Source: Acidiferrobacteraceae bacterium (GTDB lineage Bacteria > Pseudomonadota > Gammaproteobacteria > HyVt-429). From it: DNA of 64,000 nucleotides. Below the pieces are notes generated by a model. It was not told the DNA's origin, did no database searches, and was given only the letters and a program-made list of their open reading frames with translations. The stretch covers positions 828-64,827 of the forward strand of contig DRJZ01000051.1 of NCBI GenBank assembly GCA_011052015.1, written 5' to 3'. This document shows, piece after piece, positions 1 through 58,905 of the stretch; the stretch's first letter is position 1, and every line of letters starts with the position of its first letter. Both the position numbers and the translations under genes were made by a program.

Positions 1-13
1 TGGCCATGTACAA

Positions 14-211
14 GTGGACAGCGTGGACCTGGGGGCCGGTGAAGGCGCTTTTGCCGATGGCCATAAAGTGGTTCGCGTGGAGGTGATTCCAGCCTTCATG
101 CTCCAGGACCTGTTTCCGCGACCCGGCCAACTTGACCCCAGAACCCTGAAATTACTCGGCACCCTCAAAGGCGAACTTAGCAACAAAAATGTTGAGTGTG
201 AAGTGAAGTAA
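14..211 (+). CDS. 3' end of an unidentified CDS (frame open to the left window edge)
   Basis: Reading frame open from position 2 to stop at 209-211; 65-aa tail has no family motif I recognise. Confidence 0.25.
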   Translation: MDSVDLGAGEGAFADGHKVVRVEVIPAFMLQDLFPRPGQLDPRTLKLLGTLKGELSNKNVECEVK

Positions 212-532
212 ACCTTTTCTCCCTCCCGCCTGCCCCTTCTTAAACTAATGGGTACGAAAGTTATCCGGCATAATCAACTCCCGCGACTCAGCACCACCCA
301 CACCTATTGGTCCAGCGAAACCATGACCAAAGCACTACAGGCGCCAAAACCCGTAGAATAATAGGACAGCACCGAAACAATAAACTGCTATCCCCTTAGC
401 GCACCCCCTCTTTCTGGATCCCGATATACCCTCTCAAAGGGGTGCTAAAATGGGCCCACCTGTGGGGAAAGGGGCAAATATAATTTCTTCTGGGTGTGAA
501 CTGGGTCACAGAATCACCACATCAAAAACGGT

Positions 533-1366
533 ATGGTAGCGGCTAACAGAAGATGGGAAGACATTGAAAGTCTTGACAAACGCGGGGAACATAAACAGCG
601 TCAAAACCCCACGTGGGATGGCAACGATGAGGGCACTAAGATGCATCTAACAAATGGCACTATCGATCCCAAGAGATCGTTGGCCTGGCGCCACGCCGTG
701 TCGGCACTAATCGTGACGCTGCTCAGCCTTGGCAGTTCTTCGGCCATAGCAGAATCGACCTCTATAGGGCGCGTCTTGACCGGAGACATTACAGCCACTG
801 GCAAAGATCGGCCAATACAGACCCGAAAAGTTGTCGGCGGTGAGGCATTTGTGAGTGGCGAGACCCTCACCACCCAAGATAAACACGCGGTGATCGGCTT
901 TAATGACGGCACCAAGATGACCCTGCGCGCTCACACCGAGTTGGTCATCACCTCATACCGCTATGGCTATGGCCAGGGTGAGGCCCTGTTCAGCCTGAAC
1001 AAAGGCGGCATAAGAGTTTCCACGGGCAAGATCGCAGAAAACAATCCATCAAAGTTTCGCGTTAGTACGCCCTACGGTGATCTTGCCCTGCCCGACCCCT
1101 ATGCCAAGGGTCTGGCCTGTGCCGAGGGATGCGACTACGACGCCGGTCGACCCAAGGGCCCTGACACCTCAGCCGGGCATGTGGCCTTTTGTAAAGGCAA
1201 AGTCACAATTACGCGGAAAGATCACCCCCCCACTGCAATCAAGGCCGGCGATCAACTTGAAAGGGGTAATACCATAGCGGTCGGTCGCAATGGGCTTGCG
1301 GTACTGGCACTCACCGATGGCCAGCGAAGAACCCTCAAGCCCAACGAAAGCTATACCATCAGATAG
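533..1366 (+). CDS. FecR-domain secreted protein
   Basis: Signal-peptide-like segment (SLAWRHAVSALIVTLLSLGSSSAIA) followed by a FecR-type beta-rich motif (VVGGEAFVSGETL...GTKMTLRAHTELVI...GEALFSLNKGGIRVSTGKI); probable true start at the internal ATG near 641 (MHLTNG...). Confidence 0.5.
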   Translation: MVAANRRWEDIESLDKRGEHKQRQNPTWDGNDEGTKMHLTNGTIDPKRSLAWRHAVSALIVTLLSLGSSSAIAESTSIGRVLTGDITATGKDRPIQTRKVVGGEAFVSGETLTTQDKHAVIGFNDGTKMTLRAHTELVITSYRYGYGQGEALFSLNKGGIRVSTGKIAENNPSKFRVSTPYGDLALPDPYAKGLACAEGCDYDAGRPKGPDTSAGHVAFCKGKVTITRKDHPPTAIKAGDQLERGNTIAVGRNGLAVLALTDGQRRTLKPNESYTIR

Positions 1367-1544
1367 GTTACCCGGTAGACGGAATGACCATGTTCGGTCG
1401 ACCTGGAAGGTTTCAACCTAAGCTTGGGCCGTGTCTAAATCTAATGGCCTTAAATCTACTCCATCTAATTGAGACCAACATTATTATCGAAATTACTGGC
1501 TTATGAAGTTAAAATAAAACAAAAATCTGGGAGGAGATCTTACT

Positions 1545-2690
1545 ATGGCGTCCAACCGCGACAAAGCGAAAAATATTAATCACTGCCACGCCATCATACT
1601 TGCACTTAGTCTAATAGCCTGGGGACATCCGGCATGGAGTCAAAGTGATGCCAAATACAGCGCACAAATATATAAAAAAAACTGTGCCGCCTGCCATGAC
1701 ACGGGTAATGCCGGTGCACCCCCTCTTAGTGATGCAGGCAATTGGGATAACCGTCTCAGTTGGCCCCGCTGGGTCACCAACCGGCGCGTGATTAATGGCT
1801 ATGGCACCATGCCCCCCCGTGGCGGCAATAATGCCCTGTCAGACCAAGACGTCAAGGATGCGGTGACCTACATGATCGCGCGTATAGAAGCGGGGCCACA
1901 AAAAGAAGCCGAAAACCCAAAAAAGACATCTCGCCGCAACAAAAATAAAGCAACGCCAAACAATGGCAAGTATCACAAACCACCGCAAAACCGGGAAACG
2001 CCCAAAGACAGCTACGGGGATGAGGTCCGCCTGGGCAAGAAGATTTTCACCCAAACCTACAAATATGCGCGTCGCTATGTCGGCAATGAAATGAGTTGTG
2101 CCAACTGTCACCTGGATGCGGGCCGCAAGCCCAATGCCGCCCCGATGTGGGCGGCCTATGGTATGTATCCCGCCTATCGACGCAAAAATGATCGCACCAA
2201 CACCCTGCAAGAACGCATCCAACAATGTTTCCGGTTTAGCTTAAACGGTATTTCACCGGCCCTGGACGCACCGGAACTACGCGCACTCACGAGCTATATG
2301 CATTTTATTTCCAAAGGTGTACCCGTAGGGGTAAACATGCCAGGACGCGGTTACCCGCAAATCAAAAAGACCGGATTTGACCCCAACCCCGCTCGAGGCG
2401 AAACGGTTTATAAAACCAGATGCACATCCTGTCATGGCTCGAACGGTAAAGGCAAAAATAGGCCCGGCGGAGGCTATATCTACCCTCCCCTCTGGGGCGG
2501 TGATTCATACAACAAAGCCGCCGACATGTATCAGATTAAACATCTGGCTGGGTTCATCAAGACCAACATGCCTAAAGATCAGGAAGGGTCTCTGAGCGAC
2601 CAGCAAGCCCTGGACGCCGCCGCCTATATCAACACCCAACTGCGGCCCGGGGACCCCCGTAAGGGCCTCATCCAGAGCCTGTTTGACTGA
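1545..2690 (+). CDS. tsdA: Triheme c-type cytochrome: N-terminal cytochrome c5-like domain fused to TsdA-like diheme thiosulfate dehydrogenase
   Basis: GGAGGAG RBS 7 nt before ATG 1545; signal peptide; three CXXCH motifs (CAACH, CANCH, CTSCH); c5-like N-domain (NCAACHD...GAPPL...GYGTMPPRGG...DVKDAVTYMI); C-terminal part has TsdA-like features (Cys 39 residues after first heme His, PPLWGGDSYNKAADM after second heme); stop TGA 2688-2690 overlaps next ATG. Confidence 0.6.
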   Translation: MASNRDKAKNINHCHAIILALSLIAWGHPAWSQSDAKYSAQIYKKNCAACHDTGNAGAPPLSDAGNWDNRLSWPRWVTNRRVINGYGTMPPRGGNNALSDQDVKDAVTYMIARIEAGPQKEAENPKKTSRRNKNKATPNNGKYHKPPQNRETPKDSYGDEVRLGKKIFTQTYKYARRYVGNEMSCANCHLDAGRKPNAAPMWAAYGMYPAYRRKNDRTNTLQERIQQCFRFSLNGISPALDAPELRALTSYMHFISKGVPVGVNMPGRGYPQIKKTGFDPNPARGETVYKTRCTSCHGSNGKGKNRPGGGYIYPPLWGGDSYNKAADMYQIKHLAGFIKTNMPKDQEGSLSDQQALDAAAYINTQLRPGDPRKGLIQSLFD

Positions 2691-5539
2691 TGAACGCCAT
2701 GACGCAAACTATGATGCAAAAATTCTTCCCCTTTATGCAGTGGCTACCCTCTCTTGGGCAGACCACCCTGCGCCCGGACATGGAGGCGGGGTTCGTCGGT
2801 GCGATTTTGATCCTGCCCCAGGCCATCGCCCTGGCCACCCTCGCCGGTATGCCTCCGGAGTACGGTATCTATACCAGCATCTTCCCGGTCATCATTGCCA
2901 TGTTTTGGGGGTCATCATGGCATACCCTGTCCGGGCCCAATACGGCAGTCTGTGTGCTGATTGCATCATCGGTGGCCCCCTTCGCCGCCATCGGCAGCGA
3001 ACAATATATTGGCTTTGTGCTCGCACTGACATTCATGGCCGGTGCAATACAGTTAGCGGTAGGAAGCCTGCGCTTAGGGGCCATACTCGATTTCGTGTCC
3101 CACACAGTAATCTCCGCCATTGTGCTGGCGGTGGGCCTGATCATCATTGTATTTGCGGCCAACGCCCTGCTGGGGGTGTTAAGCAATCTGGACGAACCCT
3201 TTTATATTCGGCTTCACCAGATCATCCACGATATCCCCCGGGCCAATGGCTATGCCCTGTTGGTGGGAGGGCTCACCATTATCTCCGGCTTGGTAGCACG
3301 GCATTACTGGCGACGTTACTCCCTGGTCATTGCCGTGGCCGTGGGCATGTTGTCGGCGGGGGTCATCAACCTGCTTATGGGCTCGGCCTCCAGCGAACTG
3401 GAACTGCTCGGTACCCTCAGCATATCTGCGTTACCCTTTTCCGCCCCCTCCTTCGACCTGGGTTCCATGGCGGTGCTCAAGGAACTGGTAGCCAGCGCCC
3501 TCTCTATCGCCTTTCTGGGCCTGATGCAGACCATCGTAATCTCGCGTTCCATTGCCGCCAAATCTGGTCAACTTATCGAGACCAACCAAGAGATTATTGG
3601 CCAGGGCCTGGCCAATCTGGTGGCGCCCTTTGTTTCCAGCTTCGCGGGCTCCGGTTCCTTCAATCGTAGCGCCGCACACTACGATGCCGGCGCCAAGACA
3701 CCCATGGCCGCAGTTTATGCGTCGCTCTTTTTGCTGTTAGTGGTGCTCATCGCCACCAAACTGATTGCCTACATCCCCCTGGCCGCTGTGGCCGGCGCCC
3801 TGATTTTAGTCGGCATCGGCCTCATTGATGTTAAAGAAATCAAACAGGTGTTGCGCTCACGCCAAGAAGCGGTCATCTTCTTTATGACCTTCATCAGCTC
3901 CCTGGTCCTGGGACTGAATGCCGGTGTCTTTATTGGCGTACTGCTATCACTGGTAATCTATCTTTGGTACGCCTCTACACCCAATATTGTACTCGAAGAA
4001 CAGACCGCTCGGGACGGGCGACGGGTGAACATCATCACCGTCGATGGCGGCCTGTTTTTTGGTTCGGTACGCCACGTTGAACGGGTGCTCGCAAATCTAG
4101 GCGAAAGAGACGGCTATGATGGCAATCTGATCATCAGAACAGACCATATGACCTACATGGATGTTCCTGGCGCGGCACTGATCGCTGCTGAGGCTAAACG
4201 GCGCCGACAGCACAATGGTCACTTGTATATCTTTGTTACCCAACAAAAAATATCGGATGCACTTGGTCAATCCACCTTCTTTGATGAATTTGGTAAGGAT
4301 CACATTATAGAACGCAATCAAGACCACCCTATGAAAGATGTGTTATACCCCTCAAGAATAAAAAAACCCGCCAGTAGCACACAGACTAATGGCTCTGAAA
4401 AAAAAACCAATTCCCTATCACAATCTCACTCTAAAGATTTAAATGAAACTGCGACATTGGCCTCAAGCTTACAAAACACAAAACTCTTTTCCTTGCTCAA
4501 TACAGAACAAATCGAAACTTTGCTTAAAGACTCACCTATACAACATGGCAACACCGGCACCATCATCACCGATCCCGAAACTCCCATGTCCGGACACTTT
4601 GTGTTGTTGGAGGGTCGCGTTGATATCGAGCGCCTGTGGTCACTCCCTAAAGGTGGCGCCAAACGTACTAGCAGTATCATGGACCCCAATCAGGAAAATT
4701 CGGGTATCGCTATTCTACAGGCTTCGGGTCATGGTGTGCGCATCACCGCTAATGGTGTGATCACCTACCTTTTTATTGACTGCGAAAAGTTTGACTCACT
4801 TTTGGGCTGGAACCAACAACTTGCCGATATGGCCGAAACTGACCCGGAAATATCACGCCGCATGTCCCTTATAAAACATGCCGCTCTATTCCGCCAGCTT
4901 CCCCTGGAAAACCTCAAACAGGCCCTACAAAGCATGACTCCCCGGGACGTAAAGGGAGGAGAAACCATTGTACGCCAAGGTGAAACCGGTACTAGCTATT
5001 TCTTGATTGAGAGCGGTGAAGCCGGTGTGTGGAAAAAAGACACCTTTAGCGATGATACGGTCTACGCCAATACCATCGCGCCTGCGGCGCGCTTGGGTCC
5101 GGGGGAAGGCTTTGGTGAAGAGGCCTTGTTACAAAATGGCTTTCGAAGCGCTACTGTAATGATGACCACGCCGGGCCGGTTACTGGTGATGGACAAGCAG
5201 CACTTTGACGCCCACATCCGACCCTCGTCCATTAAAATGATTAGTCCCAGCGAGGCCATCAGATTTATCAAGGATAGCAAGGTGCAGTGGCTCGACTGCC
5301 GGTACGATCTGGAATATTCCGAAGCCCACATCCCCAATGCCTTGCATGTACCGTTAGATCAACTAAGGGAACAGCTTGCAGGCCTTGATCGCACCAAGCC
5401 ATGCATCGTTTATAGCCGCAATGAGCGCCGCAGCCGTGCAGCTGCGTTTTTGCTCACGGAACATAACTTCAACATCAAGGTACTGAAAGGCGGAATTATG
5501 CATTGGCCTTACGATCTCGAAGATGGAAAAACCGGGTAA
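2690..5539 (+). CDS. SulP-family anion transporter with STAS domain fused to two cNMP-binding-like domains and a C-terminal rhodanese-homology domain (catalytic Cys replaced by Ser)
   Basis: N-terminal SulP permease hydrophobic core (EAGFVGAILILPQAIALATLAGMPPEYGIYTS...), STAS-like region (VNIITVDGGLFFGSVRHVERV...), S/T/K-rich linker, canonical cNMP phosphate-binding cassette (FGEEALLQNGFRSATV), rhodanese fold ending PCIVYSRNERRSRAAAF (Ser where the active-site Cys is expected). Confidence 0.8.
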   Translation: MNAMTQTMMQKFFPFMQWLPSLGQTTLRPDMEAGFVGAILILPQAIALATLAGMPPEYGIYTSIFPVIIAMFWGSSWHTLSGPNTAVCVLIASSVAPFAAIGSEQYIGFVLALTFMAGAIQLAVGSLRLGAILDFVSHTVISAIVLAVGLIIIVFAANALLGVLSNLDEPFYIRLHQIIHDIPRANGYALLVGGLTIISGLVARHYWRRYSLVIAVAVGMLSAGVINLLMGSASSELELLGTLSISALPFSAPSFDLGSMAVLKELVASALSIAFLGLMQTIVISRSIAAKSGQLIETNQEIIGQGLANLVAPFVSSFAGSGSFNRSAAHYDAGAKTPMAAVYASLFLLLVVLIATKLIAYIPLAAVAGALILVGIGLIDVKEIKQVLRSRQEAVIFFMTFISSLVLGLNAGVFIGVLLSLVIYLWYASTPNIVLEEQTARDGRRVNIITVDGGLFFGSVRHVERVLANLGERDGYDGNLIIRTDHMTYMDVPGAALIAAEAKRRRQHNGHLYIFVTQQKISDALGQSTFFDEFGKDHIIERNQDHPMKDVLYPSRIKKPASSTQTNGSEKKTNSLSQSHSKDLNETATLASSLQNTKLFSLLNTEQIETLLKDSPIQHGNTGTIITDPETPMSGHFVLLEGRVDIERLWSLPKGGAKRTSSIMDPNQENSGIAILQASGHGVRITANGVITYLFIDCEKFDSLLGWNQQLADMAETDPEISRRMSLIKHAALFRQLPLENLKQALQSMTPRDVKGGETIVRQGETGTSYFLIESGEAGVWKKDTFSDDTVYANTIAPAARLGPGEGFGEEALLQNGFRSATVMMTTPGRLLVMDKQHFDAHIRPSSIKMISPSEAIRFIKDSKVQWLDCRYDLEYSEAHIPNALHVPLDQLREQLAGLDRTKPCIVYSRNERRSRAAAFLLTEHNFNIKVLKGGIMHWPYDLEDGKTG

Positions 5540-5609
5540 GTTGAAGCCGGAGATTATTTGACACCATACTGAAGCAGCCTGGCATTAACAAAAAAAGGGG
5601 GCAACCCAG

Positions 5610-6704
5610 ATGAAAAAACTACTCAATCGACTCAAAGCGGAAAAGCTGTTTTCAATGCTGACCGAAAAACAGCTCCACACAGTCCTGGAACACAGCAAAA
5701 TCTGCAATGCCGAGGCCGGAGACGTGGTTTTCCCTCCTGACGAACCCATCACCCACTATCTCGTTATTGTTGATGGCGAACTTGGCTGTGAACGCCAATA
5801 CACCAACGCCGACGGCCAACAAGAATTCCGCCGCAGGGTACTGAAGGGCTGCGAGGCAGAGGGTGAGATCGCTGTACTCACCGCTGCGGGTCGCGGTTGC
5901 ACCGCGAGCGCCTTAACTCCTCTACGCTACATGCTGATCGAAGGCGATCTGATCGACGTATTTCTCGGCTGGAACCAGCAAGTGTCCCGCGCCATCGTCA
6001 ATGACCCTGAACTCACTCACCGCGCCAAGCTCGTTAAACAGGTCAACGTCTTTCATCAATTGCCCCTGGAAAACATCCAAGCGGCCTTCAAACGCATGTC
6101 AACAATTGAAGTGGGTGCCGGAAACACCGTGGTCAACGAGGGGGATTCCGGGGACTGCTACTATGTGATCGAAACCGGCACCGCAGAAGTATGGCGAACC
6201 GATCCCTTCACCGACGAAACCAAACTGGTTGCAGAATTTGGCCCTGGAGACGCCTTTGGGGAAGAGGCCTTGCTGCAAAATGCCCTGCGCAATGCCACCG
6301 TTAAAATGACATCGCCGGGGAGCTTGCTGGTACTCCAAAAATCCGACTTTGATGAATTGGTGCAACCCAAGTTTCTCCAGGAAGTCGAGGCCGATGTTGC
6401 CCGGGATATGGTCGATCAGGGCAAGGCAAAATGGCTGGACTGCCGGTACGAAATGGAATACGAAGAATCTCGCATACCCAATGCCCCCCTCATCCCCCTG
6501 GACCGCATTCGAGAAAACACCCATAAGCTGGATTCCGACTCCACCTACATCGTCTACTGCCGTAGCGGTCGGCGCAGCAAGGCAGGGGCATTCTTGCTGC
6601 GCGAGCGAAATATTAAGGCCCTGTCCATGATTGGAGGCATCGCTAACTGGCCTTTTGAAATCGATGCCGAAGCCATAGATTTAACCGATACCCACACCAC
6701 GTAA
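5610..6704 (+). CDS. Standalone tandem cNMP-binding-domain / rhodanese-domain protein (paralog of the C-terminal module of the upstream SulP fusion), active-site Cys present
   Basis: AAGGGGG RBS before ATG 5610; FGEEALLQNALRNATV phosphate-binding cassette; rhodanese loop YIVYCRSGRRSKAGAF (CRxGxR type); about 45-50% aa identity to residues ~600-949 of the 2690..5539 protein. Confidence 0.75.
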   Translation: MKKLLNRLKAEKLFSMLTEKQLHTVLEHSKICNAEAGDVVFPPDEPITHYLVIVDGELGCERQYTNADGQQEFRRRVLKGCEAEGEIAVLTAAGRGCTASALTPLRYMLIEGDLIDVFLGWNQQVSRAIVNDPELTHRAKLVKQVNVFHQLPLENIQAAFKRMSTIEVGAGNTVVNEGDSGDCYYVIETGTAEVWRTDPFTDETKLVAEFGPGDAFGEEALLQNALRNATVKMTSPGSLLVLQKSDFDELVQPKFLQEVEADVARDMVDQGKAKWLDCRYEMEYEESRIPNAPLIPLDRIRENTHKLDSDSTYIVYCRSGRRSKAGAFLLRERNIKALSMIGGIANWPFEIDAEAIDLTDTHTT

Positions 6705-6878
6705 CCCTGAGTCATTCGACCGCCTCATGGAAAAACTCTTTGCTCTACTGCTAATCAAAAGACACGAACGAGGCCATGTGCTCTATTTTGTGTTGGTCTA
6801 CCTATTGCTCGGGGTCGGTATGGCGCTGGGTCGGGGCACGGGAGTTGTCCGACAGTAAGCATGCAATTTAAGCCAGCG

Positions 6879-9275
6879 CTAGATTACAGCCGCACTATTG
6901 CTGCCTTTTTCCCGGAGTCGTGCAAAAGCGATGAAAGCCGCCATATAGATGACCAGCGCTATCAGAAATAATAATTTAAATCCGATATATAGCGTCAACA
7001 CAACGCTCAGGACTCCTCCAATTACGGTAAACAGACCGTTCATGCCCCATGCCCATGGTATGGCGCCTTTTGGTTGATCCTGGATCGCCAATATACCCAG
7101 AGGCAGAGGCATGCCCATGAATATACCCAGGGGAATTATCATTGCTAATGATATCCCGATCCTTATCCAGATGGGTTCTTGCAGGAACGTATTAAATATC
7201 CAATGGTACGAGAATAGAAAAACAATCCCTATTGTCGCTATTCCGATAAATGGCCAATACCATTTATTTTTAACATCGATACCCAATTTCTGGGCTGCCA
7301 GACTGCCTAGTCCTGCCGCCAAGAGTAATGCAAACACGACCGTCGAATAGGTGTAAAGTGGATACCCGATCAGCTTCATGAACATCTGGATAAACATTAA
7401 TTCGATAATGATGAATCCAGCCCCAAGACATGAGAAATAAATGAGAGTCGTGGTTTTGGAATTCCAATGCGCCCGCCCCGCACTTGAATAATAGAGAGGG
7501 GCAACAATAAATAACACGATAAATATTAATGATGCGTAGCTTGTGATCACCAGGTGGAATATTTCTCGTGGAATACCCAGTTTACTAAGTTGTGAATTTA
7601 ACAGCGACGCGGTTGAGTAATCCATGTAAACGCCGCTTCCAGGCATTATTTTCTCGGTACTCTTGCGGAGGAAGTTGAAGAACGGTCTATTGTCGGTAGA
7701 GGCGAAAATATTGAACGGACTTTTTTCTATCGTTTCGGGAGATAACCTGCCGCTAAAATACTCGTCTGGGAGATATCTATTTTCACCGGATAAAGGATCC
7801 TCAACCAACTCTCTCTTTGAAATGATGCTATTCATTTCCGTGACTTCTTTTTGTGTCCAGGGACTCATTTTGACCATAAATGTGGGTAGATTGTCCTGAA
7901 ACCCTTTTGTTTTGTTTTGATAAACCAAAACGTGTTGCCTGAAGCTCGTGTAACCCAGTTTTCTCCAGGCTGCGGCGGCAGTGGTAACCATGCGTGGATA
8001 TACATGGTGGTTTATTTGCAGGACGCCATCTTTCTTCAGGTGCCTGAAATACTCTATATAGGCTTCGACGGTCTGGAGATAGGTTGTCGCCATTGCTCCA
8101 TTGCCCGCCGCGATGCTTGAGCTTGTGTGGTTGCTGAATATCTGGATGATGTCGTATCTCTTATTTTCCGATCTCAGGAAGCTTCTACCTTCCCCTTTGA
8201 GGTAGTTCACATTAGGATGATTGTAGATTTGTCCATTGTATGACGCGTATTTCTTCTTACCCAGTTCCACGACATAACCGACCAGTTCGATGGCGTCGAT
8301 AGTGGCTGCACCATAGGTAAGCGCCGCTTTGACTTCCTGCCCACCGGCACTGCCGATGACGAGAACGTCCTGTTGGCTATCACGCTTGAGATAATGTGAT
8401 GCAATGACAGCCGGATGCGTAAATTGTTGCCGATAATTTGCCGGCAGCCCCTTGCGCAGTTTCTTAAAATTACCATCGAACTTGACGACAACACTTGTCT
8501 GTGACCCTCCGTCATATAGAATATCTTTTCTTGCTTCAAAACCCGCCACGTCTATCTTCGATACCGGATCCCAATGGGTCAATTCTATTTTTCCCAGTAA
8601 TCGTAGTGTCCTGATGTTCCGCTTATCGCCGTGCGCCTTAAATACGAAGTAATCGGCCGAAGACACAAAGGGTGCGACTATACATGCCGTACCAATAACT
8701 AGCGCCACGTTTCGCCATACAATGTGCTTCGCAAATAAGCCCGACGCGATAATGCAAATCCCACCCACCATAAACAATAGGCCACCTGGACCCACATATG
8801 GCAAAAATGGAATAATAGCAATGCTGCCGAGACCCGCACCGATCAGGTCCCAGAAATACAGCGTTCGGATATTCGATGCGTACTTGGAAAAAAGAATCGC
8901 AAATACACTGCCCGAGAAGAAGAACGGTAAGGCCAGCACAAAATATACTATAAGTATAAGAAACACACCCTTTTTCGGATCAGAGAATAAAATATCAAAA
9001 TCAAAGTCCAGGTAATTTAATACAGGAAGTATTACTATGCTGAAAACACCGAATGCAAAGGCCATCACAGATAATCTGAATGCCGGGTCCTTGTGTGCAG
9101 CCAGCGGCTTTAAAGATAAATATATACCTGCCAGGGCAAAGCAGAACAAGGCGAGTGTTATCACCATATACGCCATGTGCGGAGCCCACAGCGAATCAAA
9201 TATCTTAATTAAAGTTAGTTCCAGCATCAAGGTTGCGAAAGCAACCATGAACAGTGCAACCTTGGTTTTAATCAT
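6879..9275 (-). CDS. Fused MFS-like membrane domain / spermidine-synthase-like (PABS methyltransferase-fold) integral membrane protein
   Basis: Many predicted TM helices at both ends; central Rossmann/PABS-like motif (VLVIGSAGGQEVKAALTYGAATIDAIELVGYVVELGKKKY...YDIIQIF); markedly AT-rich codon usage relative to the neighbours. Confidence 0.5.
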   Translation of the reverse strand: MIKTKVALFMVAFATLMLELTLIKIFDSLWAPHMAYMVITLALFCFALAGIYLSLKPLAAHKDPAFRLSVMAFAFGVFSIVILPVLNYLDFDFDILFSDPKKGVFLILIVYFVLALPFFFSGSVFAILFSKYASNIRTLYFWDLIGAGLGSIAIIPFLPYVGPGGLLFMVGGICIIASGLFAKHIVWRNVALVIGTACIVAPFVSSADYFVFKAHGDKRNIRTLRLLGKIELTHWDPVSKIDVAGFEARKDILYDGGSQTSVVVKFDGNFKKLRKGLPANYRQQFTHPAVIASHYLKRDSQQDVLVIGSAGGQEVKAALTYGAATIDAIELVGYVVELGKKKYASYNGQIYNHPNVNYLKGEGRSFLRSENKRYDIIQIFSNHTSSSIAAGNGAMATTYLQTVEAYIEYFRHLKKDGVLQINHHVYPRMVTTAAAAWRKLGYTSFRQHVLVYQNKTKGFQDNLPTFMVKMSPWTQKEVTEMNSIISKRELVEDPLSGENRYLPDEYFSGRLSPETIEKSPFNIFASTDNRPFFNFLRKSTEKIMPGSGVYMDYSTASLLNSQLSKLGIPREIFHLVITSYASLIFIVLFIVAPLYYSSAGRAHWNSKTTTLIYFSCLGAGFIIIELMFIQMFMKLIGYPLYTYSTVVFALLLAAGLGSLAAQKLGIDVKNKWYWPFIGIATIGIVFLFSYHWIFNTFLQEPIWIRIGISLAMIIPLGIFMGMPLPLGILAIQDQPKGAIPWAWGMNGLFTVIGGVLSVVLTLYIGFKLLFLIALVIYMAAFIAFARLREKGSNSAAVI

Positions 9276-9504
9276 TCTCGCACCCTTCAGATAATAAATT
9301 CCTGATTATTTTTGTGCATTTTGAAACAATCTACGCCTACTTAATCAATGCCTGTCTCACAAGATCAAAGCCATATGACAGATAAAATTATTGGCGACGG
9401 AGTAATAAAAACTTCCTCTATCTCAATAAACTCGCTATGGTTTCCCCATAAATTTTCCTGAAGAGCCATAAAACATAACATGAATGATACTACAGACACG
9501 CTAT

Positions 9505-9550
9505 CTATGACATGCCTTTCTCTGTGAGCTCCGTGCCTCCGCGGCAAAGA
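9505..9550. repeat. Single arm of the REP-like family (TCTCTGTGAGCTCCGTGCCTCCGCGG)
   Basis: Shares the CTCTGTG..CTCCGTGCCTC core with the arms at 49767-49924 and shorter versions at 12745-12785 and 28428-28468. Confidence 0.45.
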
Positions 9551-9637
9551 GAAGGCTGTATTCATATTTGCTCACAGCATTGGGTTAAAACCCATTAAAC
9601 CCAGTTTATTAGGGGACAAGAAAAGAGGAGGTGTTGC

Positions 9638-11305
9638 ATGTTAAATATTCAAATTAGTTTTGGTAAGGCAGCGGCGATCACGGTAGGTCTTGCCCTATTG
9701 CTTTACAAGTTATGGCTGGTCGAGGTTCATGATCTCTTCATGATAGGCAGCCCCATGGATGACCTGTTTTTTGTGCGTTCCGCCCAAGAATTGCTGGCCG
9801 GTAACTGGCTGGGCCGCTATACACAATACACGCTGATGGCCGGACCGGTCTACTCCATGTGGATCGCCCTGTGCTACCTGCTCGCAGTGCCCTTACACGT
9901 GGGCCAGCAACTGCTTTATGCCGGCGCTTCCCTGGTGACGGTTCTGGCCCTGTATCCGGTGGTGAGGCATAAGGGTTGGTTGCTGCTTGCCTTCGCCTAT
10001 CTTTTATTTAACCCCTTTACCTATGACTATTCATCGTCTGCCGGCGCCTTCCGGTTGGGGATTTACCCGGCCCTTGCGTTGCTGGTAATCGGGTGCGCCA
10101 TTGGCCTATATACGCGGGCCACGGTCCCCCGGGGCAAACCGTTGCCGTGGGCCGTGGGCCTCGGGGTGGCCTTGGCGGCGTTTTGGTATACACGCGAGGA
10201 GGGTATATGGATCGTGCCGGCGTTAGTGCTTACCGGCTTGTTTGTGGCCATACACGGCCGCACCCGCGGGCAGCGCCGCTGGACCTGTATTTTAGGCTTG
10301 CTCGCGGTGCCTCTGCTGATCTGGACGGGTTCATTCCTTGCGCTTGGGTATATGAATTGGAAGCACTACGGCATCTTCACCGACCTCGAGATCAAGAGCA
10401 CCGAATTCAAGTCAGCCTATAGCGCCTTGATCAGTGTGCGCAGCAATAAACACCAACGGTACTACCTGTTGGAGGCTCCGGTGAGTACCGCTCTAATCAA
10501 GGTGAGCCCTGCGTTCCGGGAGATCAAGCTTTATGTTGGTAAACTTCCTGCCTCGGTTTTTATCTGGTCCCTGCGCGATGCGGTGCAGGCAGCCGGGTAT
10601 TATGACCATGCCGGAAACGATGATCGAAAAAATGGACCGAAGACATTGGATTTTTATAAAAGGTTGGGCGATGAGATTCACCGGGCATGCGATACGGGGC
10701 AATTGACCTGTGATCGGTTGCTGTCATCGTTTGTCCCCGCGTGGACCGAGGAGTATAACCGTGAAATCTTTCCTACCCTTTACGATGTCACCAGAAAGTT
10801 ATTGACATTTGATGGCTTCGATCCGCGCATGCTCGCGAAATGGGTCAGCAGTGATCCCTATGACACATCTTGGTTGTTTACCTATATCACCGGCGAGCGG
10901 TTGCGTACCACCGATCCGGCTGTGCTCAGCAAAGTGCCCGAGGCGCACAGAGAATTTGAGGACATGAAGACTCATCGCCTCCTGCGCATCGGCCGCGACT
11001 ACTACCAGAATCTATTGCCATGGTTGTTTTGGCCCAGCGTAGTCGTGATATTGTTGGTTGCCCTCGTGGAGGCGATCAAAAGAAGAATGTCGCAAGTGAC
11101 AGTGGCTGCATTGATCGTGTTAGCGGCCCTCGTGTCGCATATCACGATTATCTCGCTGGTCGCGATGATGTCGACATTCGCACAGCGCTATTTGTTCGCT
11201 TCCTATCCTTTTGTCATTCTGGTCGTAATCCTGAGTGCGATTATGGTAGTACGCGTTATCACCACTTTGCGCGGCGGTATTGATGACATGGGCAATAGGA
11301 CATGA
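9638..11305 (+). CDS. GT-C fold glycosyltransferase-like polytopic membrane protein (ArnT/PMT-like)
   Basis: N-terminal TM followed by a DD/E motif in the first loop (PMDDLFFVRSAQELLAGNWLG), multiple TM helices, periplasmic domain, two C-terminal TM helices. Confidence 0.4.
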   Translation: MLNIQISFGKAAAITVGLALLLYKLWLVEVHDLFMIGSPMDDLFFVRSAQELLAGNWLGRYTQYTLMAGPVYSMWIALCYLLAVPLHVGQQLLYAGASLVTVLALYPVVRHKGWLLLAFAYLLFNPFTYDYSSSAGAFRLGIYPALALLVIGCAIGLYTRATVPRGKPLPWAVGLGVALAAFWYTREEGIWIVPALVLTGLFVAIHGRTRGQRRWTCILGLLAVPLLIWTGSFLALGYMNWKHYGIFTDLEIKSTEFKSAYSALISVRSNKHQRYYLLEAPVSTALIKVSPAFREIKLYVGKLPASVFIWSLRDAVQAAGYYDHAGNDDRKNGPKTLDFYKRLGDEIHRACDTGQLTCDRLLSSFVPAWTEEYNREIFPTLYDVTRKLLTFDGFDPRMLAKWVSSDPYDTSWLFTYITGERLRTTDPAVLSKVPEAHREFEDMKTHRLLRIGRDYYQNLLPWLFWPSVVVILLVALVEAIKRRMSQVTVAALIVLAALVSHITIISLVAMMSTFAQRYLFASYPFVILVVILSAIMVVRVITTLRGGIDDMGNRT

Positions 11306-11889
11306 TGTCGGTATAGCGGGTTTAACACACAGAGCCGTCCGGCAAGTATTACACGCAACAACGGGTTACGCACCAGTGTCGGGATTGCAATGCAGGGCAA
11401 TGGCGACACAATGTTGCAATTGCGCACGCTCGTCCATACACAAAAGTTTGTTTATGCCTGGACGCGAATGGTGCAACAGGTCTATGGATATCCGGATATG
11501 CGATGGATTTGCTGTAGTGCGGGATATCCTACAGCGTACCGTGCACAGCTACCTGCCCCTACTGAATTATACCGATCGGCAGGCGACCGGTATTCGGTGC
11601 CTCAGCCTGTCCCGTTGCATCGGTAGGGTGATCAATCCTGCAGAGGACCGTTTTAGGGAGAACGATCCGGTCACCATGCGACTCCCGCTCTATGCAGCAG
11701 AGCACGAAAACGAACTATGGACGTGTTTCTTTAAGGGAAGGCTCAGTGGGGTAAAAAGAATCATCAATTAACAAAAGTGCCCATATGTCTATTACTCATG
11801 GAATAAAACTACCCCCCTATAACGTCTACTAAAGTGATTTGAAGAAACCTCACTTTCAGAAACCTCTAGGAGATAAACCCGTGACCAAG

Positions 11890-12351
11890 ATGAAACGCAG
11901 AGCATTTCTCAAGGGCAGCATGGCTGGGAGTGTGCTCGCCATAGCGGTCGGCGCCGGGCTACTGCGCCCTACCCAAGTCATGGCCAGCCAATGGCCGGAT
12001 AAGGCCTTTAAAGCACGCAACCTCGCCGATGCGGTCAACAGTCTATATGGCAGTTCAGACGTTGCGGACAGCAAAGCTATCAAGATTCGTGCGCCTTTAC
12101 AGGCAGAAAATGGCGCCAAGGTGCCAATTCAGATCCTCACCGATCTACCAGCAGAATCTATTGCCGTCTTTGTTAAGGAAAACGCCATGCCCTTGGCAGG
12201 GCGCGCCAATCTGCGCAATGCCAGTGGTTTTTTTAGTACCCGTATCAAGATGGGTAAGAGTTCCGATGTGGTCGCTGTGATCAAATCAAAAGGCAAGCTC
12301 CACTCAACCAAGCTGGCGATTAAAGTCACTGTAGGTGGTTGCGGCGGCTAA
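11890..12351 (+). CDS. soxY: SoxY sulfur-carrier protein, copy 1
   Basis: Tat-like signal MKRRAFLKG; C-terminal GGCGG swinging-arm motif; ORF track starts at 11839 but ATG 11890 (MKRRAFLKG) is the likely start. Confidence 0.85.
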   Translation: MKRRAFLKGSMAGSVLAIAVGAGLLRPTQVMASQWPDKAFKARNLADAVNSLYGSSDVADSKAIKIRAPLQAENGAKVPIQILTDLPAESIAVFVKENAMPLAGRANLRNASGFFSTRIKMGKSSDVVAVIKSKGKLHSTKLAIKVTVGGCGG

Positions 12352-12388
12352 CCCATTTCGATATTGATATTTAAAGAGGAATATAATC

Positions 12389-12706
12389 ATGGCAAGAAAG
12401 ACTAAAGTACGCACCCGCATGCAAGACGGCAAAGTCGAAGTATTGATTCTGATCACCCACCCCATGGAGACCGGCCTTCGCTCTGATAAAAAAACCAAAC
12501 AAAAGATCCCGGCCCACTTCATTCAAACCCTGGATGTCATCCTGAATGGAGAACCGGTGGCCAACGCCGAACTGGGGATAGGCATCTCTACCAACCCATT
12601 ACTGGGTTTCCGTCTCAATTCGGCGAAAACCGGTGATAAACTACAAATTAAATGGAAGGATAACAAGGGGGAGAGTGGAACCATCAACAGCAAAGTCGAT
12701 CTCTGA
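12389..12706 (+). CDS. soxZ: SoxZ, copy 1
   Basis: 105 aa, immediately downstream of soxY; about 50% identical to SoxZ copy 2 (ITHPMETGLRSDKKTKQKIPAHFIQ..., GESGTIN). Confidence 0.85.
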   Translation: MARKTKVRTRMQDGKVEVLILITHPMETGLRSDKKTKQKIPAHFIQTLDVILNGEPVANAELGIGISTNPLLGFRLNSAKTGDKLQIKWKDNKGESGTINSKVDL

Positions 12707-12830
12707 TCAAAACCTTTATTGATGTGTTACTACTCTGTATCCCCGTGTCCTCTGTGGTGAAAAATTGTGCACGGAGCACCCTGATTCCTTGGTGGCTTGA
12801 AGACGACGGTGTCCAAGGAGCAATAAGCAC

Positions 12831-13208
12831 TTACTCGTTTTCGGTCAATCGCTCGTAGTGGGATTGAAACAATATCTCCAAGTCATTGATCACCTCCATA
12901 GCCGCCCGTCCTTCCATGACATGCTGGGATACCAGGGCGGTTGATTCGTTCATAAGCTCGGTGGCGTCTATCATTGGATAGGTGATGGTAAGGCGTTGAA
13001 TGGCCTTTACCACGGTTTCTTCCCCCGGCCGTGGAATCGATAGCGGCTCCTTCACCCCAGAGTCTCTATGCACCCCACCCTCTTGAGCGTGCAAAAACTC
13101 GGCAAAATCCAGCAGGCTAGTCCGTTTGGCGTCCGTCAAACCCTGAAAGATTGCTGCCAATCGGTGACTTGGGTTCCCGCTCATCACTCTTCTTGATGTC
13201 GACATCAC
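12831..13208 (-). CDS. Hypothetical small protein, translationally abutting the LysR gene
   Basis: 125-aa ORF starting 3 nt after the LysR stop; no recognisable motif. Confidence 0.35.
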   Translation of the reverse strand: MMSTSRRVMSGNPSHRLAAIFQGLTDAKRTSLLDFAEFLHAQEGGVHRDSGVKEPLSIPRPGEETVVKAIQRLTITYPMIDATELMNESTALVSQHVMEGRAAMEVINDLEILFQSHYERLTENE

Positions 13209-21412: not shown

Positions 21413-21880
21413 ATGAAACGTAGAACGTTTATGAAGGGCAGTCTTGCGGGAAGCGTACTGGCGGTTGCCGCCGGTAGTGGCCTGCTTAAGCCCACCGATG
21501 TCCTGGCAGCAGGGTGGCCGAAAGGGGCGTTTGACGCTCAAAGCGAAGCCGATATGCTGAGCAGCCTGTATGGCTCGAGCAGCGCCAGCGCTAGCGGAAA
21601 GATCCGTATTAAGGCCCCGATCCAGGCGGAAAATGGGCGCGTGGTGCCGGTTAAGGTACAGGCCAGTCTGGCTAATGTAGAATCCATTGCCGTCGCCGTC
21701 GCCAAGAACCCACGCCCCCTCGCCACTAGCGTCAATCTGAGCGGTGGTGCAACCGGCTATTACAGCACCCGCATTAAAATGGGCAAGACCTCTAAGGTCA
21801 CCGCCTATGTTAAAGCTGGCGGTAAACTGCATACGGCTTCCAAAACGGTGAAAGTGACCGTTGGTGGCTGCGGCGGTTAA
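21413..21880 (+). CDS. soxY: SoxY, copy 2
   Basis: Tat signal MKRRTFMKG; C-terminal VTVGGCGG. Confidence 0.9.
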   Translation: MKRRTFMKGSLAGSVLAVAAGSGLLKPTDVLAAGWPKGAFDAQSEADMLSSLYGSSSASASGKIRIKAPIQAENGRVVPVKVQASLANVESIAVAVAKNPRPLATSVNLSGGATGYYSTRIKMGKTSKVTAYVKAGGKLHTASKTVKVTVGGCGG

Positions 21881-22296: not shown

Positions 22297-23115
22297 ATGA
22301 AGAAGCTTATTATTGCAGTAACGGCTCTTGGATTGCTGGCGTTTGGTTCGCTATCGGTCCAAGCTAGCCCTCAAAGTGACCTGAAAGCATTTCAGGGATA
22401 CTTTAAGAAAAACTTCCCAAAAATCAAATTCGACGATTTCTCAAATGGTCTTTATGCCCTTCCTGAGGCCGCCGACCGGCGCGCCGAATGGGAGGCCATC
22501 GAAGAATTCCCACCTTATGAGCTTGACCTCGCCAAGGGTAAGAAGTTTTGGGAGAAAAACAAGCTGGGTACCTGCTTTAAGAATGGCGGTGCCGGTATTG
22601 CCCAAAACTACCCCTACTGGGACAAGAAAAAGAAGGAAGTCCGCACCGCAGAGTTGGACATCAATGCCTGCTTGAAACGGCAAGGCAAAAAGCCTATCAA
22701 AAAAGGCAAATTGGCTACCGTAACCGCCTATTTCTATAACATGGCGCGGGGCAAACGGATCAAGATTGACGTGTCAGCTCCTGGCGCTATTGCCGAATAT
22801 GAGAAGGGCAAGCATTTCTTCTGGGCCAAGCGCGGCCAGTTGAACTTCTCATGCGCCAACTGTCACATCAGCGGGGCAGGCAAGCGGGTTGGCGGTAACA
22901 TCATGAGTACGGCTCTGGGTCACGGTACCGGTTTTCCGGCCTACCGCTCCAAGTGGGGCGGTCTGGGTACCATCCACCGCCGTTATAAAGGCTGCAACAA
23001 GCAGGTGCGGACTGCGCCATTAAAGCAGAACAACAAGACGTACCGTGCACTGCAACTGTATGAAACATATATGAATACAGGCCTGCCTTTGACGGCACCC
23101 AGTAACCGGTTCTAG
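22297..23115 (+). CDS. soxA: SoxA, monoheme type
   Basis: Signal peptide; single CANCH heme motif; Cys ligand in RRYKGCNKQVR; no second CXXCH. Confidence 0.85.
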   Translation: MKKLIIAVTALGLLAFGSLSVQASPQSDLKAFQGYFKKNFPKIKFDDFSNGLYALPEAADRRAEWEAIEEFPPYELDLAKGKKFWEKNKLGTCFKNGGAGIAQNYPYWDKKKKEVRTAELDINACLKRQGKKPIKKGKLATVTAYFYNMARGKRIKIDVSAPGAIAEYEKGKHFFWAKRGQLNFSCANCHISGAGKRVGGNIMSTALGHGTGFPAYRSKWGGLGTIHRRYKGCNKQVRTAPLKQNNKTYRALQLYETYMNTGLPLTAPSNRF

Positions 23116-23319: not shown

Positions 23320-25068
23320 ATGAGCCTTTCCCGACGTGAATTCCTCCAACTGCTGACTGCAGCCAGTGCCGCAGGATTCGCCCTGCCAGGCTGCGACAGC
23401 AGCAACACCACGACCGCGCATACCACAGCTTCATCTACCAACCCGGCCGACCCCTATGAGCTAAAGCCGTTTGGTAATGTTTCCTTTATGCACTTTACCG
23501 ACTGCCACGCGCAACTGCTACCCGTGCATTTTAGAGAACCCAACATTAACCTGGGTTTCGGTAGCGCCTATGGCAAGGCCCCGCATCTGGTAGGCGACAA
23601 GTTCCTGAAGCATTTCGGCATCAAACCCGGCACACGTGAGGCCCATGCCTTTACCTACCTGAACTATGTCGAAGCCGCGCAAAAATACGGCAAGGTCGGT
23701 GGCTTTGCCCATCTTGCCACCCTCGTCAAACAGATTAAGGCGCAGCGTCCAAACGCTCTACTACTCGACGGTGGTGACACTTGGCAGGGTTCGGCCACCG
23801 CACTGTGGACCAAGGGTCAAGATATGATAGATGCCTGTAAGCTTCTGGGCGTGGACGTTATGACCGGCCACTGGGAGTTCACCTATGGAGCCAAACGGGT
23901 ACAGGACATCATCAAGAATGATCTTGATGGCCATATAGAATTTCTAGCTCAAAATGTGGTGGAAACCACGTTTGAAGACCGCATTTTTAATCCCTATACC
24001 ATTAAAGAACAAAATGGCATCAAAATCGCGGTCATCGGCCAGGCCTTCCCTTACACACCGATTGCCAACCCACGTTACATGATCCCGGATTGGAGCTTCG
24101 GTATTCGTGATGAGGCCCTGCAAGAACTGGTTGACGAGGTGCGTGGCAAAGGGGCCCAAGTGGTAGTTATCCTGTCTCACAACGGCATGGACGTGGACCT
24201 CAAGATGGCTAGCCGGGTAACCGGTGTCGATGCCATCATGGGTGGTCACACCCACGACGGGGTTCCGGCGCCCAGTGTCATCAGCAACTCCAATGGCAAA
24301 ACCCTGGTTATCAACTCGGGCTCAAACGGAAAGTTCTTGTCGGTGCTGGACCTCGAAGTCAAAGGGGGCAAAGTTAGCGATTATCGCTTCAAGATGCTGC
24401 CGATATTCTCGAATCTCATCAAGGCCGATGCCCAGATGACTGCCCATATCAATAAGGTCCGTGCACCTTACAAGGCCAAACTTGAAGAAAAGCTGGCCAT
24501 CACCGACAGCCTGCTCTACCGGCGGGGCAACTTTAATGGCACCTTTGATCAACTGATTCTGAATGCCCAAATAGAGGTCCAGGGCGCTGATATGGCGTTT
24601 TCACCGGGATTTCGTTGGGGCGTGAGTCTACTACCGGGAGAGGCCATCACCCGTGAGGCCTTGATGTCTCAGACCGCAATCACCTACCCCAAGGCCACCC
24701 TCAACACAATAACGGGCGAAAACCTGAAGACCATCATGGAAGGCATCGCCGACAACCTGTTCCACGAAGATCCCTACTATCAGATGGGTGGAGATATGGT
24801 GCGAACCGCCGGATTAAAATACACCATTGACCCCACCGCAAAGATGGACCACCGAATCAGCGATATGGAGATAAACGGTTCAAAAGTAGAGGCCAGCAAG
24901 GAATATCTAGTCGCTGGCTGGGCTGCGGTTAACCCGGTACCGAAGGGTCGACCCATCTGGGACATCGTCGAGGAATACCTGAAATCCATTAAAGTCGTCA
25001 AAATAGACAAACCCAATGTGCCAAAATTAAAAGGGTCAAGCGGCAACCCAGGTATTGCAAGTATATAA
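23320..25068 (+). CDS. soxB: SoxB thiosulfohydrolase (5'-nucleotidase/metallophosphatase family)
   Basis: Tat signal SRREFLQLL; metallophosphatase motifs (FMHFTDCHAQL, GGDTWQGS, GHWEF, GGHTHD); 582 aa. Confidence 0.9.
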   Translation: MSLSRREFLQLLTAASAAGFALPGCDSSNTTTAHTTASSTNPADPYELKPFGNVSFMHFTDCHAQLLPVHFREPNINLGFGSAYGKAPHLVGDKFLKHFGIKPGTREAHAFTYLNYVEAAQKYGKVGGFAHLATLVKQIKAQRPNALLLDGGDTWQGSATALWTKGQDMIDACKLLGVDVMTGHWEFTYGAKRVQDIIKNDLDGHIEFLAQNVVETTFEDRIFNPYTIKEQNGIKIAVIGQAFPYTPIANPRYMIPDWSFGIRDEALQELVDEVRGKGAQVVVILSHNGMDVDLKMASRVTGVDAIMGGHTHDGVPAPSVISNSNGKTLVINSGSNGKFLSVLDLEVKGGKVSDYRFKMLPIFSNLIKADAQMTAHINKVRAPYKAKLEEKLAITDSLLYRRGNFNGTFDQLILNAQIEVQGADMAFSPGFRWGVSLLPGEAITREALMSQTAITYPKATLNTITGENLKTIMEGIADNLFHEDPYYQMGGDMVRTAGLKYTIDPTAKMDHRISDMEINGSKVEASKEYLVAGWAAVNPVPKGRPIWDIVEEYLKSIKVVKIDKPNVPKLKGSSGNPGIASI

Positions 25069-58859: not shown

Positions 58860-58905
58860 CTCGCCAAGGCGCCAAGTGCGCAAAGGAAAAACGGCTACGG
58901 TGACG
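58860..58905 (+). repeat. Right copy of the islet-flanking direct repeat
   Basis: See the 57085-57130 feature. Confidence 0.55.

Follow-up and report, generated by a model that had tools for sequence, protein, structure and literature searches.

TsdA has so far been seen as a periplasmic enzyme standing by itself, whether or not its partner TsdB is present, and the TsdA enzymes are bifunctional (PMC5146829). How oxidizable sulfur crosses the inner membrane from periplasmic enzymes and stores (Sox, TsdA, sulfur globules) to the cytoplasmic systems is a long-standing gap. In the closest functional precedent, the thiosulfate importer YeeE needs a cytoplasmic partner with a sulfurtransferase cysteine, YeeD (PMC11073785), and the cytoplasmic sulfurtransferases DsrE3A and TusA are reactive toward tetrathionate (PMC4175335). 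Here we describe a three-gene unit in a stretch of 64,000 nucleotides from an Acidiferrobacteraceae bacterium (assembly GCA_011052015.1, contig DRJZ01000051.1, positions 828 to 64,827; hereafter the window). A TsdA-type cytochrome gene (tsdA) overlaps the gene of a SulP/SLC26 transporter (sulP, gene 2), whose C-terminal tail of two cyclic-nucleotide-binding (CNB) domains and a rhodanese domain is encoded again, as a separate protein, by a third gene (gene 3). Fusions of SulP proteins to carbonic anhydrase or rhodanese have reportedly been recorded in the 2004 family survey of Felce and Saier. In the full-text literature that we searched, we found no description of a four-domain SulP tail or of a SulP-TsdA link, and no paper tying TsdA to a dedicated transporter. 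An earlier note on this DNA, made from the letters alone, knew of no description of the arrangement either. The TsdA-SulP coupling and the fused, split and pseudoenzyme series reported below thus appear undescribed in that literature, the families TsdA, SLC26, CNB and rhodanese being known.

Comparative evidence argues strongly for a functional link between TsdA and SulP. The comparison took in 168 related loci, drawn from metagenomes, from species-representative genomes and by looking up exact proteins (cited by L number where needed). Where the sequence upstream was long enough, we scored each locus for a tsdA directly upstream of sulP on the same strand and binned the loci by identity of the SulP core to that of the window protein. 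The pairing was present in 17/17 loci at an identity of at least 55%, in 3/6 at 45–55%, in 9/15 at 38–45% and in only 2/48 below 38%. When all neighbors were clustered all against all, TsdA was the sole widely shared neighbor of the CNB-CNB-rhodanese module (24 of 63 loci). A one-nucleotide TGATG or TAATG overlap was found in about 11 loci, namely L002, L004–L008, L010, L013, L039 and L082 besides the window, and L011 has a four-nucleotide ATGA overlap. Since the arrangement recurs in dozens of independent assemblies it is not due to chance; the carriers are metagenome-assembled genomes (MAGs) of Gammaproteobacteria (including Ectothiorhodospiraceae and Chromatiaceae), Thiobacillaceae and Magnetococcales. 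A second metagenome scan, with motifs of the transmembrane (TM) core, returned mostly generic SulPs, and these served as our set of negative controls. We left the flanking genes out of the unit, since neither those for FecR-domain proteins upstream nor those for membrane proteins downstream are conserved with it. Taken as a whole, the comparison supports the view that the three genes are one evolutionary unit; the earlier note had taken them to look like one functional system.

All three genes lie on the plus strand, as do all features given below unless stated otherwise, and a check of the open reading frames placed them at 1545–2690 (381 amino acids), 2690–5539 (949 amino acids) and 5610–6704 (364 amino acids). 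A Shine-Dalgarno sequence, GGAGGAG (1530–1536), stands 8 nt before the ATG of tsdA at 1545. The stop codon of tsdA (TGA, 2688–2690) and the start codon of sulP (ATG, 2690–2692) have one base, an A, in common, and the resulting TGATG (2688–2692) is a signature of translational coupling. A spacer of 70 bp (5540–5609) precedes gene 3, which has its own ribosome-binding site, AAGGGGG (5594–5600), nine nucleotides ahead of the ATG. The layout, overlap and spacer agree to the nucleotide with what the earlier note had read, and that note had also given gene 3 a ribosome-binding site of its own. A perfect TTGACA hexamer, without a good −10 element to match, stands at about 5557–5562 within the spacer and may serve gene 3 as a weak internal promoter. 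Our promoter and terminator scans flagged neither kind of signal in the spacer, and their counts overall were no higher than in shuffled controls, so operon structure is not readable from such signals. No Rfam family, and hence no riboswitch or other RNA element, reached its gathering score in positions 1–13000.

The first gene (1545–2690) encodes a triheme periplasmic cytochrome with CxxCH motifs at residues 47, 185 and 293. Its N-terminus, MASNRDKAKNINHCHAIILALSLIAWGHPAWS/QS, resembles a Sec signal peptide in our own reading of the sequence (residues 1–32, ending ...AWS/QS). It is followed by a c5/c551-like monoheme domain (residues ~40–113; CAACH, 1683–1697), a linker rich in Lys, Asn and Pro (residues 114–150) and the diheme TsdA core (residues 152–372; CANCH, 2097–2111, residue 185; CTSCH, 2421–2435, residue 293). 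Pfam matches were to Cytochrome_CBB3/c5-like (40–110) and SoxA-TsdA_cyt-c (181–261), with PF21342 scoring 44.7 bits against a cut-off of 27. Solved TsdA structures match over residues 145–372 (5lo9, E = 7e-55; 4wq7, E = 5e-46): residues 152–368 align with 16–235 of AvTsdA (E = 5e-46) and with 245–480 of MpTsdBA (E = 7e-55). The active-site Cys228 (codon 2226–2228), in RIQQCFRFSLNG (RIQQC228FRFSLNG), aligns with the heme-1 Cys ligand in the AvTsdA motif RIGDCFERSLNG. The heme-2 Met is kept as well, within K-T-N-M (2556–2573; IKTNMP here, IKHKMP in AvTsdA). The TsdA-like nature proposed in the earlier note thus rests on profile searches and on solved structures alike.

Two other identities were tried for this protein. 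SoxA was rejected on score, since TIGR04484 gave 54 bits where its cut-off is 110, compared with 189 for the soxA of the window (22297–23115). An origin of the N-terminal domain from TsdB was rejected because there is just one extra CxxCH (residue 47). That domain matches monoheme c-556, c-555, c5 and c6 proteins (1e-12 to 1e-5) and not, at any significant level, the TsdB half of 5lo9, which genuine TsdB-like genes do match (2e-26). The protein is therefore a triheme c5-TsdA and not a TsdBA. Its length and coverage are common to about 25 protein clusters, and the form is found also in L002, L083, L086, L167 and L168. These results support a true TsdA-type enzyme extended at its N-terminus by a monoheme domain, which would pass electrons as a built-in partner, in the manner of TsdB in TsdBA fusions. 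With its putative Sec export and with active-site Cys and heme-2 Met intact, the enzyme can be expected to interconvert thiosulfate and tetrathionate in the periplasm. The earlier note had spoken of periplasmic thiosulfate oxidation; the TsdA-type enzyme stands, but oxidation as the direction is not established, as TsdA is bifunctional (PMC5146829) and its bias cannot be read from sequence.

For the second gene (2690–5539), Pfam returned Sulfate_transp (residues 27–400, the TM core; 2768–3889), STAS (445–539; 4022–4306), cNMP_binding (752–841) and Rhodanese (852–939; 5243–5506). PF00916 scored 240 bits over model positions 1–380 of 380, and PF01740 (STAS) scored 31 bits against a cut-off of 22.6. 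PDB matches to SLC26 members ranged from 2e-48 to 1e-20, the closest solved relatives being prestin, SLC26A11 and AtSULTR4;1, and the tail matched the tandem CNB domains of PKA and PKG in two stretches. An AlphaFold model (pLDDT 79.8) shows a folded core, predicted to be of the 14-helix type, followed by the STAS domain, a disordered linker (556–584), two beta-barrel domains of CNB type and a rhodanese fold. Because the model shows these folds, we take the four C-terminal domains to be real, including the first CNB-like domain, which had no Pfam match; on this Pfam and AlphaFold agree with the architecture read by the earlier note. That first domain, CNB-A (residues ~589–715; 4454–4834), aligns with CNB-A of gene 3, and the fold of both is predicted at a pLDDT of about 80–85. 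Its SGIAILQASGHGVRITA has lost the ribose-binding Glu of the phosphate-binding cassette, which is degenerate across most of the family. In CNB-B the cassette, FGEEALLQNGFRSATV (5111–5158), is intact. The rhodanese-homology domain carries Ser909 (AGC, 5414–5416), within YSRNERRS, at the position of the catalytic Cys. A sequencing error behind Ser909 was rejected, as the Ser is common to the independently assembled P0002 (L002) and P0003 and to a second clade.

The third gene (5610–6704) encodes a stand-alone protein with two cNMP_binding matches and a Rhodanese match at residues 261–347 (PF00581, 54.7 bits). On CNB-B, PF00027 scored 56 bits for gene 2 and 86 bits for gene 3. CNB-A of gene 3 has the cassette GEIAVLTAAGRGCTA (5862–5906), with G-E...R kept, and CNB-B has FGEEALLQNALRNATV (6255–6302), spaced like the PKA motif, FGELALIYGTPRAATV. 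The active-site loop C317-RSGRRS is complete (Cys codon TGC, 6558–6560). Invariant in 33 gene 3 homologs are G217, E218, R227, A229 and T230 of CNB-B and all of C317-R-S-G-R-R-S323, and the CNB-B cassette FGEEALL....R[NS]ATV (pattern G-E-x-A-x(6)-R-x-A-T) is near-invariant in 33 + 37 homologs. More than 600 matches at E ≤ 1e-10 show how large the family is. The AlphaFold model of gene 3 (pLDDT 80.5) finds its best structural matches in the tandem CNB-A/B of PKA regulatory subunits and of PKG, at E of about 1e-18. Some of the PKA regulatory subunit (PKA-R) homologs among these matches bind nucleosides, to judge by the PDB titles, and a cyclic nucleotide monophosphate (cNMP) is a putative ligand of gene 3. 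As it has no signal peptide, gene 3 should be cytoplasmic, like the SulP tail, the C-terminal tail of SLC26 proteins being on the cytoplasmic side. The sequences thus show a predicted cytoplasmic, PKA-R-like tandem CNB module with rhodanese, linked to SulP by fusion or as a neighboring gene.

Gene 3 does re-encode the tail of the transporter, as the earlier note had it: residues 590–944 of gene 2 and 4–352 of gene 3 are 39% identical (E = 1e-92). What that note called a duplicated regulatory and catalytic module is, on our alignments, an old pair of paralogs with a division of labor and not a simple repeat, and represents one of three interchangeable architectures. With Ser in place of the Cys, the built-in rhodanese of SulP cannot perform the sulfurtransferase chemistry attributed to it; of the two copies gene 3 alone can. 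A recent tandem duplication was rejected in view of the 39% protein identity. The sole trace of duplication in the DNA is a 65-nt direct repeat (5277–5341 and 6421–6485, 77% identity) that encodes the conserved start of the rhodanese, WLDCRY(D/E)(L/M)EY...IPNA. Fused tails of other genomes are 53–57% identical to gene 3 of the window and 40–44% to its own tail, so the free copy is the conservative one and the fused copy of the window the divergent one. We also considered a decaying pseudo-domain and rejected it. Against a relative of 87% identity, every tail domain has a dN/dS of 0.04–0.12 (0.10 for the Cys-less rhodanese, 0.12 for CNB-A), values that come from one pair, with dS near saturation in some segments. 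The low ratios indicate that purifying selection still acts on the Cys-less domain, a pseudo-rhodanese that is being maintained.

Across the loci the same parts occur in three architectures. In the fused one, TsdA is joined by a SulP-STAS-CNB-CNB-rhodanese protein; about 80 protein clusters have this form, mostly of the Cys type, and the Cys is retained in the fused rhodanese of 31 of 37 aligned family members. In the split one, TsdA, a SulP-STAS protein of 565–569 amino acids (55–56% identical to the window core) and a CNB-CNB-rhodanese protein with YCRSGRRS are encoded consecutively (L167, L168), and in a dispersed form a few other genes come before the free module (L037, Magnetococcales; L045, Chromatiaceae). 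The third architecture, that of the window, combines a fused Ser tail with a free Cys copy. By Rosetta-stone reasoning, the fused, split and dispersed forms speak for a partnership between SulP and the module. Ser variants fall into two separate clades in a neighbor-joining tree without support values, one with the window, P0002 and P0003 and the other with P0048, P0052 and P0055. An adjacent Cys-bearing free copy accompanies five of the six Ser loci, 3' of sulP in the window, L002 and L082, and divergent, upstream of tsdA, in L083 and L086; the sixth, L085, has no free copy inside its 10-kb contig. None of the 13 Cys-type fused loci has a free copy in its available flanks, not all of which are complete. 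A metagenome scan for the Ser-type tail alone found nothing. The series from fused (Cys) through split to fused (Ser) plus free (Cys) offers a clean natural experiment in pseudoenzyme evolution.

The module is also found apart from SulP. In eight betaproteobacterial MAG loci (Rhodoferax, Hydrogenophaga and others) the free module adjoins, usually on the opposite strand, a gene of the YeeE/YedE family ('Sulf_transp', PF04143, E = 2e-59). Such loci include L012, L025, L028, L032, L058 and L059 (Comamonadaceae and other betaproteobacterial MAGs), often with a LysR regulator. As these taxa are interrelated, common descent may account for part of the adjacency. The gene order conserved in Nitrospirota (Magnetominusculus and its relatives; L048, L050, L051, L053–L055, L057) is PAS, a TsdA-like diheme cytochrome, CNB-rhodanese and a DsrE-like protein, the CNB-rhodanese having about 350 amino acids and YCRSGRRS, and the DsrE-like protein 162 amino acids with a signal peptide. 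On this genomic evidence, the partners of the free module are all sulfur-related, and it goes with more than one transporter family.

We propose that the three genes are one co-expressed unit for handling sulfur oxyanions that imports the thiosulfate or tetrathionate of TsdA, a proposal that, with the uncertainty over substrate included, we see as evenly balanced between right and wrong. SulP would carry the substrate or product of TsdA (thiosulfate or tetrathionate) over the inner membrane, most probably inward. Import is favored over export because the biochemically characterized prokaryotic SulPs that we know of (BicA, DauA, SLC26Dg, Rv1739c) are all importers. At the cytoplasmic mouth of the transporter, the rhodanese Cys would take sulfane sulfur from thiosulfate, or thiosulfonate from tetrathionate, and pass it on, and cNMP binding to CNB-B would tune transport or transfer. 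In this lineage the fused tail, with Ser909, a retained Arg-rich loop and purifying selection, has become a non-catalytic pseudo-rhodanese; it would probably act as an anion-binding, docking or regulatory scaffold, with the catalytic Cys supplied in trans by gene 3. A more specific version, which we offer tentatively and with low confidence, is that the SulPs of the TsdA-linked clade, together with their rhodanese under cNMP control, form a dedicated route by which periplasmic thiosulfate or tetrathionate sulfur enters the cytoplasm as protein-bound persulfide or thiosulfonate. The Ser tail would then be a pseudoenzyme scaffold bringing the active sulfurtransferase to the transporter.

Several observations weigh against the import proposal. 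Five fused SulPs at 45–48% identity have no TsdA, and the Nitrospirota loci pair TsdA with CNB-rhodanese with no SulP nearby, so the module does not strictly need a SulP transporter. Since the window also encodes Sox and a YeeE/YedE-type transporter, a further import route is not obviously required. The association of free copies with Ser loci (5/6, against 0/13 for Cys loci) has a Fisher's p of 5e-4, which overstates the case because it stems from two evolutionary events and some Cys flanks are incomplete. To our knowledge, no characterized SulP carries thiosulfate or tetrathionate, and substrate, direction and the effect of cNMP are points that we only infer from the sequences. Moreover, gene 2 falls short of the NCBIfam cut-off of TIGR00815 sulP (274 against 380 bits). 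The identities BicA (117 against 880 bits) and DauA (168 against 614 bits) were rejected in the same way, so that membership in the superfamily holds and no known substrate class can be assigned. These scores bear also on a generic explanation, in which the protein is an ordinary sulfate, sulfite or bicarbonate permease (serving assimilation, carbon uptake or the export of sulfate) and the adjacency to tsdA has no mechanistic meaning. The database name 'SulP family sulfate permease' and the weak matches to the BicA and DauA models speak for it. We consider it very unlikely, given how far those two scores lie below their cut-offs and that adjacency and overlap are kept across Gammaproteobacteria, Magnetococcales and metagenomes while only 2/48 distant SulPs have tsdA upstream.

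The synteny of TsdA, SulP and rhodanese would be explained equally well by transport in the opposite direction. Cytoplasmic thiosulfate or sulfite (e.g. from rhodanese acting on sulfite and persulfide, in an SQR-PDO-rhodanese route) would leave via SulP right where it is made, and TsdA would oxidize the thiosulfate to tetrathionate and harvest the electrons. The inside-negative membrane potential favors anion efflux, L082 has a PDO-like Lactamase_B + Rhodanese gene 4 kb downstream, and in L021 a gene of metallo-beta-lactamase fold directly follows the fused SulP; SulPs have also often been proposed as sulfate exporters in thiotrophs (PMC10952691). Nevertheless export seems unlikely to us, in that the YeeE/YedE-type genes beside the free module have an importer, YeeE, as their characterized member (PMC11073785), and no SQR or PDO gene was among the window ORFs scanned. 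A different role for the module is that of a sensor or regulator, which would read cNMP and, through persulfidation of its Cys, sulfane-sulfur status, and would regulate the transporter or other targets without being a metabolic carrier. The PKA-R-like tandem CNB architecture fits such a role, as do the regulatory, interaction-mediating nature of STAS domains (PMC6497670), the presence of the module in Nitrospirota with no SulP and elsewhere next to other transporters, and the selection that keeps the Cys-less tail. Two findings make it distinctly unlikely in our judgment: the CRSGRRS loop is invariant in the stand-alone family, and a Cys copy stands next door in 5/6 loci where the fused Cys is lost, which puts cysteine chemistry under selection, though sensing through that Cys would be compatible with it.

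Other loci show further combinations of these genes. A branch of SulPs with TM and STAS domains only (L037, 2832–11065; L045, 251–7831; L094, L095, L097, L098, L099, L104) is encoded in a conserved operon made up of a tsdB-like c4 diheme cytochrome, one to three copies of tsdA, sulP, one or more DsrE-like proteins and a SoxB paralog. The DsrE-like proteins and the SoxB paralog have signal peptides, and the latter scores 193 bits against a cut-off of 550. With a SoxA homolog, a small Cys-protein and a SoxB homolog, the set resembles a Sox-like system with a DsrE-type carrier, of which we found no description. In L167 (3792–12213) and L168 (5582–13971) two TsdA-SulP pairs converge on a hypothetical gene and a thioredoxin-like gene. 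One pair has a triheme TsdA of 470 amino acids, SulP-STAS and a free CNB-rhodanese; the other has a triheme TsdA of 383–387 amino acids and SulP-STAS, without the module.

Elsewhere in the window, soxY occurs at 11839–12351 and 21413–21880 (both above the SoxY_true cut-off), soxZ at 12389–12706, soxA at 22297–23115 (189 bits) and soxB at 23320–25068 (855 bits). The organism, which the earlier note had supposed to be a sulfur oxidizer, is on this account one of the Sox type, with periplasmic Sox besides TsdA. The YeeE/YedE-family 'Sulf_transp' gene (PF04143) lies at 25483–26718 on the minus strand, convergent. A tandem-rhodanese protein of 302 amino acids (58895–59803, minus strand), with a weak likeness to 3-mercaptopyruvate sulfurtransferase (97 bits, cut-off 250), is probably a further cytoplasmic sulfurtransferase in this genome segment. 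Between gene 3 and soxYZ lies a block of lower GC content (6879–11771; 0.42–0.47, against about 0.52–0.57 around it). It encodes a polytopic protein of 798 amino acids with a weak spermidine-synthase-like domain (minus strand), a membrane protein of 555 amino acids with no Pfam match and an ORF of 163 amino acids. In L002, a relative of 87–92% identity, soxY follows about 180 bp after gene 3 (11096–11276), so the block in the window looks like an insertion. FecR-domain proteins with a weak match to a LapA-type retention module are encoded directly upstream of tsdA in the window (533–1366) and in L002 (3436–5684), and also in L001 (1–1038); TsdA-SulP loci other than those of the window and L002 lack them.

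If the more specific version of the import proposal holds, the route would be an unrecognized entry point to cytoplasmic sulfur oxidation (rDsr/sHdr), under second-messenger control, in many uncultured sulfur oxidizers. The TsdA-linked SulP clade offers a concrete, testable candidate for a thiosulfate or tetrathionate transporter together with its cytoplasmic acceptor, and the CNB domains would be a first hint of cyclic-nucleotide control over dissimilatory sulfur traffic. The carriers found are almost all uncultured MAGs, and the system has so far been seen by genome mining alone.

Set against the described systems, each part of the unit has a recognizable counterpart. The diheme core of the cytochrome aligns over its full length with TsdA of A. 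vinosum (4wq7), M. purpuratum (TsdBA, 5lo9) and C. jejuni (E 1e-46 to 1e-55), and its heme-2 K-T-N-M, with Asn before Met, is like that of CjTsdA and MpTsdBA, whereas A. vinosum has the Lys-Met type (PMC5146829). A fused N-terminal cytochrome domain is common to TsdBA and the window protein, but TsdB is a c4-type diheme domain, for four hemes in total, and ours a single c5/c551-like heme domain, for three. Gene 2 shares the full-length Sulfate_transp core and the STAS domain with SulP/SLC26 proteins (BicA, DauA, SLC26Dg, plant SULTR, prestin); it adds the CNB-CNB-rhodanese tail of ~390 residues after STAS and the linkage to tsdA. PKA regulatory subunits and PKG are the best structural match for residues 1–255 of gene 3. 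They differ in that PKA-R has a kinase-inhibitory segment where gene 3 has a rhodanese output domain, and in that CNB-A is degenerate in most members of the family formed by gene 3 and the SulP tails. Gene 3 shares with the Rhd, TusA and DsrE sulfurtransferases that feed rDsr and sHdr (PMC11094781, PMC4175335) its occurrence in a sulfur oxidizer and a rhodanese of one domain whose loop is basic and six residues long. In contrast to that relay, the three-gene unit has no TusA or DsrE gene, and its rhodanese is joined to cNMP sensors and a transporter.

The closest functional analogy is YeeE (TsuA) and YeeD (TsuB) (PMC11073785), where likewise a transporter for a sulfur oxyanion goes with a small cytoplasmic Cys-sulfurtransferase, in fused as well as split versions; the free CNB-rhodanese module even adjoins YeeE/YedE genes in some Betaproteobacteria. 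The likeness is one of function only, as the folds are unrelated (SLC26 and YeeE; rhodanese and the TusA-like YeeD) and Pfam found neither PF04143 nor a TusA domain in the three genes. Compared with YeeE and YeeD, the unit of the window adds a cNMP-binding module and a link to a periplasmic redox enzyme.

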